Source of the DNA: a virus
Taxonomy: Duplodnaviria > Heunggongvirae > Uroviricota > Caudoviricetes
Virus record (IMG/VR): IMGVR_UViG_3300000292_000114
Strand: one strand, 5' to 3'
Length of the DNA stretch: 4,708 nt
In this document: piece by piece, positions 1-4,708 of the stretch
Numbering within the stretch: the first letter of the stretch is position 1
Layout: each line of letters opens with the position of its first letter
Translations under genes and position numbers: made by a program
Notes under the pieces: model-generated
What the model was told of the DNA's origin: nothing
What the model saw: only the letters and a program-made list of their open reading frames with translations
The model's database searches: none

Positions 1-87
1 CGTGCGCCACTGATCGCCCACTTCCTTCAGTTCATGGGCTGGTTTGTTCCGCAGCTCCACCAGCGCCTGGCAATATTTATTACTCAT
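1..87 (-). CDS. 5' fragment (29 codons; gene continues past the window start) of a putative phage Dam-family N6-adenine DNA methyltransferase (YfdM-like)
   Basis: ATG at 87-85 overlaps the upstream TAA stop (TAATG). My reverse-complement translation is MSNKYCQALVELRNKPAHELKEVGDQWRT, open to the window edge. The D-x-W-x-T(P) N-terminal motif is as I recall it for phage Dam methyltransferases. Gene order O-like / PerC-like / methyltransferase resembles CPS-53 yfdO-yfdN-yfdM. Partial, so not in the ORF track. Confidence 0.4.
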   Translation of the reverse strand, partial: MSNKYCQALVELRNKPAHELKEVGDQWRT

Positions 88-575
88 TAAGCCCCCACGT
101 AATTCCCTGACAGATACCACTCTTCACCCGATGCAGCGCGCTTGCTGCTTTTCCGTAAGCACCGCTCACGACGCGCCAGAAAATTGTTTCGTTCTGGCTG
201 GGAGTGGCTTTCACGGAATGCCGCCATCCACACGGTTGCAGCACGACGGTATAAACCCCTGGACTCCAGTTCTTCAGCCTGGCGGGTCAGGCACAAAATC
301 ACCCGTGGATCGTTAGTGCCGACATAGAAATTGCGCACAGGTCTGGTTTCTCGAACTGGTTGTGGTTCCGGTTCCTGCGCTCTCTCAGTCAGGCGCGGGA
401 AATGTCTGCGTGTATCTCCTTCACAACGGTGAGCCACACGCCCACTCTGACGTAACTTGCTTGCTGACTGCAGAACGCGCTGTCGTGAGTAACCTGCAAA
501 AGCATCCGCAATGTCACCGGAAGTACACCCCGGATGGGCTTCAATGAATTTCTGAACGTCATTTAACAGACTCAT
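87..575 (-). CDS. PerC-family (YfdN-like) putative transcriptional regulator, about 162 aa
   Basis: Part of track ORF 87..809(-). First ATG after the N-run is at 575 (MSLLNDVQKF...). C-terminal half carries a PerC/Pch-like motif (AEELESRGLYRRAATVW...RRERCL). Stop TAA at 89-87. True start is uncertain because Ns at 583-719 lie immediately upstream. Confidence 0.55.
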   Translation of the reverse strand: MSLLNDVQKFIEAHPGCTSGDIADAFAGYSRQRVLQSASKLRQSGRVAHRCEGDTRRHFPRLTERAQEPEPQPVRETRPVRNFYVGTNDPRVILCLTRQAEELESRGLYRRAATVWMAAFRESHSQPERNNFLARRERCLRKSSKRAASGEEWYLSGNYVGA

Positions 576-742
576 GATCACCNNNNNNNNNNNNNNNNNN
601 NNNNNNNNNNNNNNNNNNNNNNNNNNNNNNNNNNNNNNNNNNNNNNNNNNNNNNNNNNNNNNNNNNNNNNNNNNNNNNNNNNNNNNNNNNNNNNNNNNNN
701 NNNNNNNNNNNNNNNNNNNCTCGCGTTTTTCGGTGTACGTAC

Positions 743-1660
743 TTACGGACGGCGATAAGCGCAGGGAAAGCTCATCCCATTTTTCCCGCAGCTTCGACGG
801 GCTGAGCACGTTACGGCACCAGAACGGATCGCGGCTGACGCGGCTNNNNNNNNNNNNNNNNNNNNNNNNNNNNNNNNNNNNNNNNNNNNNNNNNNNNNNN
901 NNNNNNNNNNNNNNNNNNNNNNNNNNNNNNNNNNNNNNNNNNNNNNNNNNNNNNNNNNNNNNNNNNNNNNNNNNNNNNNNNNGGCTGTCCAGTTCGGTTC
1001 TTTGGGACGAACCACCTCGCCGTCACATTCGGCAGCCTGCTCGTACAGGGCGATGATTTTTTTCCAGAGCCACTGTGCGCAGGTCAAATCATCCTGCGTT
1101 CCCCACTGGCGCTTTTTAGGGCTGAATACAACAGCATCAGGATGGCGAGTTAAAAACTCCTGTTCAGCCGTCTGCGTGTCCGGTTGCGAAGCGTCCGGAC
1201 GAGAAGTTTTTTTATCTGACGGATCATGTTTTGATTTTACTGACGGATCCCCGCCAGATTCTGACGGGTGAAAACCCGCTTTTTTGCCAGATTTCGACGC
1301 ATCAAATTTTGACGGGGCAGATTTTGATGCGTCAGATTTTGACGGGTCAGAATCTGACAGTTGAGAAAATGCCGCTGCCTGAAGCTTCGCAACGTTAAGC
1401 TGATAAACATTCGACGCATTGCGGTTACCCTGGCGACGCGCCTTACGCGTTAACCAGCCTTCTGCTTCCAGCCGTGCGATAGCCGTTCTGACGGTACTCA
1501 TCCCCGCGCCAATCTGGCGGGCAATGGTTTCAATTGATGGCCAGCACACACCTTCGTCATTACTGAAATCAGCCAGGCGGGCCATAATTGCCACGCTGGA
1601 TAACTTCATGCCTGACGCAGCGCAACCATCCCATACATAGCCGGTTAATTTAGTGCTCAT
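743..1660 (-). CDS. Phage replication initiator, lambda O-like (N-terminal winged HTH, low-complexity linker encoded by iterons, C-terminal DnaT-like region)
   Basis: Track ORF 743..1660(-), 305 aa, interrupted by Ns 846-982. GAGG Shine-Dalgarno 6 nt upstream of ATG at 1660. N-terminus MSTKLTGYVWDGC...IARQIGAGMSTVRTAIARLEAEGWL is HTH-like. Central SDPSKSDASKSAPSKFDASKS repeats coincide with the DNA iterons. Position after cro/cII-like genes fits a replication gene. Confidence 0.7.
   Translation of the reverse strand: MSTKLTGYVWDGCAASGMKLSSVAIMARLADFSNDEGVCWPSIETIARQIGAGMSTVRTAIARLEAEGWLTRKARRQGNRNASNVYQLNVAKLQAAAFSQLSDSDPSKSDASKSAPSKFDASKSGKKAGFHPSESGGDPSVKSKHDPSDKKTSRPDASQPDTQTAEQEFLTRHPDAVVFSPKKRQWGTQDDLTCAQWLWKKIIALYEQAAECDGEVVRPKEPNWTAXXXXXXXXXXXXXXXXXXXXXXXXXXXXXXXXXXXXXXXXXXXXXXAASAAIRSGAVTCSARRSCGKNGMSFPCAYRRP
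1211..1363. repeat. Iteron array (candidate phage origin of replication) embedded in the O-like gene
   Basis: Eight copies of an approximately 15-bp unit with core GATTYTGACGG: 1211-1225, 1232-1249, 1256-1270, then five contiguous 15-bp units at 1289-1363 (AGATTTCGACGCATC, AAATTTTGACGGGGC, AGATTTTGATGCGTC, AGATTTTGACGGGTC, AGAATCTGACAGTTG). T7 run at 1208-1214 adjacent. Confidence 0.6.
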
Positions 1661-2887: not shown

Positions 2888-3636
2888 ATGAAAACAATCC
2901 ATGACATCCGGCGGTCTAACGCCAGAAAACTGAGAGATGGTGTTGGCGGGAATTCTTCCTTTGCCACTATGATTGATCGCGAGCCAACCCAGACCAGCAG
3001 GTTTATGGGAGATGGTGCTACTAAAAATATCGGTGACAGCATGGCACGACACATCGAAAAATGTTTCGACCTGCCTGTCGGATGGCTCGATCAAGAACAC
3101 CAGACAACGAACATCACAAAAAAACCTGATGTTTCAATCACTAATAAACAAATCACATTAGTCCCTGTCATATCATGGGTACAGGCCGGAGCATGGAAAG
3201 AAGTTGGATATTCTGAGGTTGATTTGAGCACAGCAGAAACGTATCCCTGCCCTGTACCCTGTGGGGAAATGNNNNNNNNNNNNNNNNNNNNNNNNNNNNN
3301 NNNNNNNNNNNNNNNNNNNNNNNNNNNNNNNNNNNNNNNNNNNNNNNNNNNNNCTTGCGGGTGATAGGTGATTCAATGATTGATGAGTACCGCCCGGGAG
3401 ACATGATTTTTGTCGATCCTGAAGTACCTGCCTGCCACGGTGACGACGTTATTGCATTGATGCACGATACAGGTGAAACCACCTTCAAAAGGTTGATAGA
3501 AGATGGGACACAGCGTTATCTCAAAGCGTTAAACCCAAACTGGCCTGAGCCTTACATTAAGATCAACGGTAATTGCTCTATAATTGGTACTGTGATTTTC
3601 TCAGGAAAACCAAGAAGATACAAAATCAAAGCCTAA
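2888..3636 (+). CDS. cI-like prophage repressor, LexA/S24 peptidase family (two segments 2888-3271 and 3355-3636 separated by an 82-nt N-run)
   Basis: Track ORFs 2888..3364(+) and 3355..3636(+). N-terminal part has ...VISWVQAGAWKEV (Ala-Gly autocleavage-like motif, compare lambda cI HVQAGMF). C-terminal part has VIGDSMIDEYRPGDMIFVDPE (Ser nucleophile) and TFKRL (Lys). The two parts are in different frames if the Ns are length-preserving (span 749 nt, not a multiple of 3). Confidence 0.65.
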
Positions 3637-3671: not shown

Positions 3672-3788
3672 ATACTTGATAATATACCTTTGAGATACAT
3701 AATGTACCCAAGAGAAACAACAAACAGGCAGGACGCCCACGAAGTAGCCGCCTGGGGCATATGAAGTCCAGGATGATTCGTTAGCAAC

Positions 3789-4351: not shown

Positions 4352-4635
4352 TTAATTATCCCCTCTAAGAACAGAGTCATCCAGATTAGCCGAATCCTTG
4401 TTGTTGGGGAATAACCAGGCCCACCTCGCCTGATGTGGCTAAAAGCAGGCACATAACAGCTAAGTATTTTCAACCAGAGAGAATCCTTAGCGTTGTGGTG
4501 AATGCGGCTCAGCGCACGCGGGTTAAGGTTGAGGCTGACAGTCGACCTTCTGTGGATACCCACCCGCCTGGTGTGCAACCTTCGCCAGGCACCGGGAGGC
4601 ACCCGGCACCACAACTTTATGCTGTGTGTAGTCCT

Positions 4636-4682
4636 GGCGGTACCAGCTTGTACCCTTGCTTCCGGCTGGTACCGCTCTTTTT
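4636..4682 (+). other. Perfect 11-bp inverted repeat GCGGTACCAGC-N17-GCTGGTACCGC followed by TCTTTTT (terminator-like hairpin or protein-binding palindrome)
   Basis: Arms at 4636-4646 and 4664-4674 are exact reverse complements. T-run at 4678-4682. The loop contains CTTGTACC, the same half-site as the immunity operators. Confidence 0.35.
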
Positions 4683-4708
4683 ACAAAACAGAGAAGAGCA
4701 TCACCGGA

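Follow-up and report, generated by a model that had tools for sequence, protein, structure and literature searches.

The stretch of DNA analysed here, hereafter the window, is the 4,708-nucleotide sequence of IMG/VR virus record IMGVR_UViG_3300000292_000114. It comprises the immunity and early-replication region of a lambdoid prophage of the e14/SfIV type, and our subject is its replication initiator gene (578-1660, minus strand; stop codon at 578-580), which carries an array of short palindromic repeats, a candidate replication origin, within its own coding sequence. Bases 990-1700 share 99.2% identity with Shigella phage SfIV and also with several Escherichia coli phages. The gene order is that of SfIV, with a cI-like S24 repressor gene on the plus strand and, on the minus strand, cro, a gene for a CII/CP76-like regulator, a small open reading frame (ORF), the replication gene, and a gene for a PerC-like regulator. 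As in lambda, cro and the cII-like gene precede the initiator gene in the rightward early operon. It is the orthologue of SfIV_41 (313 amino acids), which is annotated in SfIV as a 'replication protein', and its product falls into PHROG 391 ('replication initiation O-like', E 1.6e-135). The runs of N in the window (583-719, 846-982, 1709-1718, and 3272-3353) are masks, and the two inside the initiator gene, 137 nucleotides each, stand for 64 and 69 real SfIV bases. Because masks misstate the number of bases, the length of the gene in the window is not the gene length and the lengths and frames of ORFs across masks are meaningless. SfIV_41 was therefore used as the full-length reference.

Tandem Repeats Finder placed an array at 1288-1351 with a period of 15 (4.3 copies, 77% matches) or 30 (2.1 copies, 85%), and a repeat search recovered six in-register copies at spacings of 33, 15, 15, 15, and 15 bp. 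With up to two mismatches allowed, the window has 13 occurrences of the motif GATTYTGACGG where 2.4 would be expected; none of 200 shuffles reached 13, and eight of the occurrences fall within 1251-1360. The repeat array reported in the first-pass annotation is borne out by all three approaches, with two qualifications. Its five 'perfectly phased' units are exactly phased but differ from one another, showing 65-83% identity to the reference copy and 0-2 mismatches to the motif GATTYTGACGG. Of its 'three upstream copies', 1257-1267 is a full copy and forms part of a 17-bp palindrome at 1251-1267, whereas 1211-1225 and 1235-1249 share only the half-site CTGACGGATC. The encoded linker peptide is as it had been given, the minus-strand ORF reading ...LSDSDPSKSDASKSAPSKFDASKSGKK...

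On the sense strand of the gene, the unit has the form NNN-TCA-RAA-TCT-GAC, that is, five codons encoding x-S-K/E-S-D. Its core, TCAGAATCTGA, is near-palindromic, and the site as a whole extends to 15-17 bp. Five abutting 15-bp units are arranged head-to-tail from 1286 to 1360, with palindromic cores at 1347-1357, 1332-1342, 1317-1327, 1302-1312, and 1287-1297; they encode (D)SD-PSKSD-ASKSA-PSKFD-ASKSG, and across orthologues the codons of these cores are frozen. The most conserved site across species is the sixth, CCGCCAGATTCTGACGG at 1251-1267, a 17-bp palindrome in which seven of eight arm positions are complementary; the commonest site type is CCGTCAGAATCTGGCGG. Between units 5 and 6 lies an 18-bp spacer (1268-1285; sense GGC AAAAAA GCGGGTTTTCAC) with an A6 tract, and this conserved A6/T6 tract could contribute to DNA bending. 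The half-site CTGACGGATC occurs at 1240-1249, where it contains a conserved GATC (1246-1249), and again at 1216-1225, where it contains a second conserved GATC (1222-1225) whose Asp codon is GAT in 100% of orthologues. All of these sites lie in the linker-coding part of the gene, at about amino acids 100-150 of the initiator. In the 39.8-kb SfIV genome, the core motif clusters in the rep gene only (8 matches against 1.8 expected), and the rep-gene array is one of two tandem-repeat arrays in total.

No DnaA box was found in or beside the array. Elsewhere in the window, one-mismatch DnaA-box-like 9-mers (TTATCCACA) lie at 2014, 2267, 2571, 4080, 4434, and 4551; six were counted against 0.9 expected, none of 200 shuffles reached six, and three lie in or near the cII-like gene. 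A terminator-like hairpin (CGGGTGAAAACCCG followed by T6; 1265-1278, plus strand), antisense to the rep gene and placed in the spacer that separates sites 5 and 6, was also considered, and a role for it at the end of an antisense RNA was rejected on the grounds that its stem is weakened in the orthologue consensus. The hairpin is probably incidental.

The initiator protein has an N-terminal winged-helix DNA-binding domain (about amino acids 1-97; 1370-1660, minus strand) that matches Pfam HTH_36 at amino acids 23-70 (E 2.5e-11) and that presumably reads the iterons. A search of solved structures returned weak MarR-type matches only (E about 0.008), which is consistent with a winged helix and no more. 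In the Pfam search, the initiator did not match Phage_rep_O (PF04492) even at E<=1, whereas the control, 434 O, matched it at E 5.6e-36; Rep_3 was likewise without a match, and RP-C gave a weak score below its cut-off (17 against 24.4 bits). A lambda-O-like C-terminal domain begins at about amino acid 175 (990-1135, minus strand, the rest being partly masked). This domain is homologous to the P-binding C-terminal domain of lambda and 434 O, as shown by BLASTP against 434 O (E 7e-26) and tblastn against lambda O (E 4e-18). The linker-encoding repeats fall between HTH_36 (amino acids 23-70) and the lambda-O-like domain (from about amino acid 175). The earlier description of the protein as 'O-like' accordingly holds for its architecture and C-terminal domain but not for its N-terminal domain, which is HTH_36 rather than Phage_rep_O. 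The term 'low-complexity linker' is apt: the peptide has a high content of Ser, Asp, Pro, and Lys, its number of units differs between species and within E. coli and Shigella, and it withstands a frameshift in one segment.

A repeated sequence inside a gene may of course be a feature of the protein alone, in this case a (D-x-S-K-S)n linker made and homogenised by replication slippage with no role in cis. The unit is exactly five codons long and in frame in nearly all copies, its composition is typical of disordered linkers, and whole-unit changes in number occur in E. coli and Shigella, giving proteins of 313, 318, and 323 amino acids, all of which would suit such an explanation. To weigh it, we compared 80 orthologous loci from different species with N-terminal domains at 52-100% identity, 75 of which have a readable linker. 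The repeats are present in related prophage genes, a comparison that the first-pass annotation had proposed as a check: the core TCA(A/G)AATCTGA, with at most one mismatch, occurs in three to eight copies in the linker of 68 of the 75 orthologues, while the remaining seven, which are the most divergent, have zero or one copy. No copy of this core is found in the gene outside the linker, and the rest of each locus, ~4 kb, holds 0-1 copies with both strands counted.

Codon usage in the linker departs from that of the same genes' N-terminal domains. Ser codons are TCA in 49% of cases in the linker against 12% in the N-terminal domain and TCT in 35% against 8%, and Lys is encoded by AAA in 96% against 58%; the wobble positions of Asp, Pro, and Ala in the spacers are unbiased. 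When S[K/E]S tripeptides were defined at the protein level to avoid a DNA-based choice (n=253), the first Ser was TCA in 229, the Lys or Glu codon was AAA or GAA in every one (253/253, with AAG and GAG never used), and the second Ser was TCT in 186 and TCC in 50 (236/253). The N-terminal domain shows saturation at synonymous sites: the top codon has a mean frequency of 0.49 at four-fold sites, and Ser columns mix AGY and TCN. Orthologues aligned on the conserved peptide GGDPSV share a block, about 66 nucleotides long, that corresponds to site 6 plus the adjoining A+T-rich stretch (consensus TTTGACCCGTCAGAATCTGGCGGGGATCCGTCAGTAAATTCAAAACAAGATCCATCAGATAAAAAAAC) and is at least 90% conserved at nearly all positions, wobble included; its top-codon frequency is 0.92 against 0.55 in the N-terminal domain (Mann-Whitney p = 7e-7). 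Immediately past the A+T-rich block, conservation of the DNA breaks down, and it is there that the C-terminal domains diverge.

The reading frame itself can change while the DNA is kept. In phiP27 and in a Citrobacter prophage (L076), a -1 indel precedes and a +1 indel follows one conserved copy, ACCCKTCAGAATCTG. The bracketed DNA, ACCC(G/T)TCAGAATCTG, is intact and is read as TLQNLD in phiP27 or TRQNLT in L076 and not as HPSESG (compensated frameshifts at 1930-1975 of the phiP27 locus and 2430-2470 of L076).

A purely peptide-level repeat is excluded by the clustering of the core, the frozen codons, the saturated N-terminal domain, the conserved block, and the frameshifted copy taken together. 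The wobble positions of the core are frozen over about 70 species in which the N-terminal domains of the same genes are saturated, AAG and GAG are absent from 253 Lys/Glu codons, a conserved copy sits in another frame in the phiP27 lineage, and the sequence is a palindrome, although nothing in a peptide repeat calls for one. We therefore consider a role of the repeats in the protein alone barely credible, and the codon and frame comparisons argue that the DNA is conserved in its own right and not merely for the peptide.

Variation in the array was seen in 80 E. coli and Shigella viral contigs (L087-L166), of which 75 have five tandem units, two have six (318 amino acids), and one has seven (323 amino acids); the set also includes one 303-amino-acid variant and one frameshifted copy. 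Point variants in E. coli and Shigella are concentrated in the spacer triplet that separates unit 3 from unit 4 (CCG, ACG, CAG), and the window's own G1317 change (Asp to Ala) adjoins this variable triplet.

Conservation of the DNA could also arise from structure in the mRNA or single strand, or from an overlapping reading frame, instead of from duplex protein-binding sites. In support of this, the 176-nucleotide sense strand folds far better than shuffles (z = -4.7), and alternative frames are open across the array (1231-1398, plus strand; 1237-1419, minus strand). However, a z-score of this kind will result from any array of palindromes, no hairpin can form from one 11-bp palindrome whose centre is one nucleotide, base identity is conserved beyond pairing, and the array varies in length by whole units. 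On the repeats, no Rfam family was recognised, the best score being 27.7 against a 97-bit threshold, and this hit, to mir-5880, was set aside as a chance match to the palindromes. That the alternative frames are open is an automatic consequence of the motif, and the codon evidence led us to reject an overlapping ORF along with pure slippage. An RNA structure or second reading frame as the cause of the conservation is in our judgement highly improbable.

The dyad symmetry of the sites is maintained across orthologues. The inner arms CAGA/TCTG are near-invariant, and in the outer arms, complementary pairs are commoner than would be expected of independent positions (for example, positions 4 and 14 in 234 cases observed against 196 expected). 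Relatives with 50-62% identity in the N-terminal domain have CCTCCAGAATCTGGAGG, a perfect 17-bp palindrome, or GTCCAGAATCTGGAC, in which both arms are switched symmetrically relative to the SfIV-type CGTCAGAATCTGACG and the peptide becomes PPESGG or GPKSG. In the L083 type, the site is CTCCAGAATCTGGAG, and L083 has in addition three weaker sites in 33-bp tandem units, which indicates that multiplicity and dyad symmetry are conserved while spacing is not. The initiator of Edwardsiella phage Edno5 is more distant still, at 27% identity to the SfIV protein, and has an HTH_36 domain, a lambda-O-type C-terminal domain, and a P gene that follows. At the same position in the gene, its palindrome is a different one, ATCCCAAAATTGGGAT; three 24-bp copies stand in tandem, two of them identical and the third at 83% identity, with two weaker copies besides, and these repeats encode NDPKIGIL. 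On this comparison, the symmetric switches and the different Edno5 palindrome present the pattern expected of initiator-iteron pairs.

The sites are followed directly, on the downstream side, by a candidate unwinding element, an A+T-rich stretch (1202-1241; 72% A+T) in which the sense strand is rich in A. It corresponds to nucleotides 420-459 of the SfIV gene, which by nearest-neighbour stabilities is the least stable 40-bp window of that gene (z = 3.43). In 434 O, the least stable window (nucleotides 437-476, 78% A+T, z = 3.09) falls just after the annotated iterons, so that the two windows begin at nearly equal positions in their genes (nucleotide 420 against 437).

The GATC at the position of 1246-1249 is present in 68 of 68 orthologues, and 55 of the 68 have two GATC sites within 75 nucleotides. 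The Asp codon at the GATC of the conserved block is always GAT, as compared with 209 GAC and 92 GAT for Asp in the tandem units. A gene for a Dam-type N6-adenine methylase directly follows the initiator gene in Klebsiella phage 1 LV-2017, phiNP, and locus L169, and in YeP2 it is found one gene further on. Taken together, the conserved GATC sites and the nearby methylase genes suggest that the origin may be under methylation or SeqA control.

The N-terminal domain, the iterons, and the A+T-rich block are inherited as one module that is joined to at least three C-terminal types. The lambda-O-like type is found in SfIV and Klebsiella phage 1 LV-2017. A Phg_2220_C type is found in phiNP, by alignment in YeP2, and in most genomic loci as judged by the peptide after the block. 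The third is the phiP27-type domain, with DnaC-like and DnaB-like genes downstream. To judge by its inheritance as a block, this module would set replicon specificity. Two E. coli chromosomal loci, L061 and L084, have only the start of the gene (match at 2001-2237): the first 79 codons of the initiator are fused in frame to an unrelated 455-amino-acid ORF, while the iterons, A+T-rich block, and C-terminal domain are absent, which fits a replication-defective prophage. We take this fusion to resemble the ymfN arrangement of e14 in K-12, which presumably is joined to terminase-like sequence. A search for the initiator as the sole replicon of a small plasmid gave mostly prophages in large replicons or phage-like circles of about 40 kb, and of the phage and plasmid records that we examined for initiators of this family, none has an origin annotated within the gene.

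Dyad arrays under selection at the DNA level do not by themselves prove origin function. The repeats could be genuine protein-binding DNA with another purpose, such as an autoregulatory operator or roadblock, an array bound by another regulator of the phage or of the host, or a locus for copy control or incompatibility, with the origin placed elsewhere; plasmid iterons, for example, act in copy control too (general knowledge; PMC5043065). Against this, the array occupies the position homologous to that of ori-lambda, the least stable stretch lies on the same side and at the same distance as in 434, and the array is inherited as a block with the DNA-binding domain of the initiator. Moreover, SfIV has just one other tandem-repeat array and no second cluster of the motif, and roles in control and in origin function are not mutually exclusive. 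Such a function with the origin lying elsewhere is in our view unlikely.

We therefore return to replication. The repeats are very probably the initiator-binding sites (iterons) of a lambda-type in-gene prophage origin that is followed by an A+T-rich unwinding element, a prediction that we base on comparative sequence analysis. Every feature of such an origin that is open to sequence comparison was found: the position in the gene between the N- and C-terminal domains, at least four dyad sites, a promoter-distal A+T-rich region of about 40 bp, co-variation of the repeats with the N-terminal domain, and constraint on the DNA that is independent of the peptide. The parallel with ori-lambda drawn in the first-pass annotation gains support from this comparison in its position, dyad sites, unwinding region, selection on DNA, and co-variation. 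Mechanistically, dimers of the initiator's own HTH_36 winged-helix domain would bind the six sites, five of which abut at 15 bp, and the resulting nucleoprotein complex would strain and open the adjacent 40-bp A+T-rich stretch at 1202-1241. The lambda-O-like C-terminal domain could then recruit helicase-loading functions of the host. The peptide rich in Ser, Asp, Pro, and Lys would serve as a length-tolerant flexible tether whose sequence is for the most part set by the DNA sites; the free variation in its length, and the fact that even its frame can change, show that it acts as such a tether.

Several points weigh against this interpretation. With abutting 15-bp sites, one dimer would be turned about 154 degrees around the helix from the next, an arrangement unlike that of lambda with its spacing of ~20-24 bp. 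The A+T-rich stretch is milder than that in 434 (72% against 78%). Orthologues are related by descent, so the counts over 75 loci are not independent events. By annotation and Pfam, no helicase, loader, primase, or polymerase gene was found in the 39.8-kb SfIV genome, nor was a P-type or DnaC/DnaB-type loader gene found adjoining the initiator gene; there is thus no P, DnaC, or DnaB gene among the SfIV annotations to account for helicase recruitment by the lambda-O-like C-terminal domain. The genes that do come next after the SfIV initiator (window 87-575) encode a winged-helix and PerC protein and a protein with a LexA DNA-binding domain. A single-sequence AlphaFold2 model of amino acids 1-223 had a mean predicted local distance difference test (pLDDT) score of 41, which is too poor to inform on fold or disorder, and it was not used. 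Finally, a full-text literature search, which did not extend to the e14 genome paper, returned no published account of this origin, its binding, or its activity, here or in related phages.

A more distinctive design can be imagined in which a loaderless single-protein replicon packs initiator dimers on gapless 15-bp palindromes, initiation is sensitive to Dam and SeqA via the two conserved GATC sites, and the linker peptide is an evolutionary passenger of its own binding sites. Dam/SeqA-sensitive initiation would fit the Dam-type methylase genes that directly follow the initiator gene in several relatives. As a whole we find this design rather doubtful and put it forward tentatively.

Other features of the window belong to its regulatory part. 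Operator-like elements were noted at 2800-2875 and about 3685-3715: palindromes with TGTAC/GTACA half-sites occupy the interval from cro to the repressor gene, examples being TGTACCTCCGGTGTACA and CTTGTACCTTAACGGTACAAG at 2852-2872, and in SfIV (28455-28493) two tandem copies of a 20-bp repeat are found on the far side of the repressor gene. These palindromes and the SfIV repeat are probably the operators OR and OL. At 4462-4684 on the plus strand, there is a full-length match to the Rfam small RNA STnc100 (RF02076), which at 45.4 bits (E 9.6e-8) is slightly under the gathering score of 47 bits.

The analysis defines the likely origin and specificity module of prophages that are very common in enterobacteria, namely those resembling e14, SfIV, and SfII and those resembling phiP27, as well as many prophages in Klebsiella, Citrobacter, Yersinia, and Providencia. 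It also offers a clean natural case of dual coding, in which the predicted DNA-binding sites of a protein dictate the sequence of that protein's own linker. In practical terms, the module provides concrete reagents for experiments on incompatibility and specificity and for lambda-dv-like vectors of new specificity. The concept of lambdoid phage replication is unchanged.

Among known systems, the 13-mer unwinding element of E. coli oriC contains GATC, is A+T-rich, and lies beside initiator sites; the likeness here is loose only, as GATCATGTTTTGA fits seven of the 11 defined positions of GATCTnTTnTTTT, and membership is not claimed. Plasmid iterons lie outside the rep gene, are direct repeats, and are bound by Rep monomers, usually with DnaA boxes present, whereas the SfIV-type sites are palindromic, coding, and inside the gene, with no DnaA box by the array and no Rep_3-type domain detected. 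The hallmarks of a plasmid iteron replicon of the Rep_3/RepA type, a Rep_3 WH1-WH2 fold and iterons outside the gene, were thus not found. What the plasmid origins of the pSC101, F, R6K, and P1 type do share with the present module is a set of replicon-specific initiator-binding repeats by an A+T-rich region, in which the initiator-iteron pair sets specificity (PMC5043065).

Edno5 shares the domain architecture and also has its linker-encoding palindromic tandem repeats at the same place in the gene, but it differs in its 24-bp units with a ATCCCAAAATTGGGAT core, which are lambda-like in look, in its 27% identity, and in the P gene that follows. The closest parallel is ori-lambda, in which dyad-symmetric sites bound by O dimers are followed by a 40-bp A+T-rich region (PMC5043065). 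Lambda and 434 likewise have the origin within the initiator gene, at the linker that joins the N-terminal DNA-binding domain to the C-terminal one, with multiple dyad sites, a downstream A+T-rich stretch of about 40 bp that is A-rich on the sense strand, and a place in the rightward early operon. The annotated gpO-binding iterons of 434, at O codons 117-144, are equivalent to the SfIV-type location at about amino acids 100-150. The C-terminal domains are homologous, whereas the N-terminal domain families differ (Phage_rep_O against HTH_36) and the site sequences are unrelated (ATCCCTCAAAACGAGGGA against TCAGAATCTGA here). Four sites about 20-24 bp apart in ori-lambda compare with six here, five of them abutting at 15 bp, and the SfIV-type module differs further in having two conserved GATC sites in its A+T-rich part and no P-type loader gene found. 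It is thus a new example of the textbook in-gene origin arrangement, with some unusual details, and not a new kind of system.

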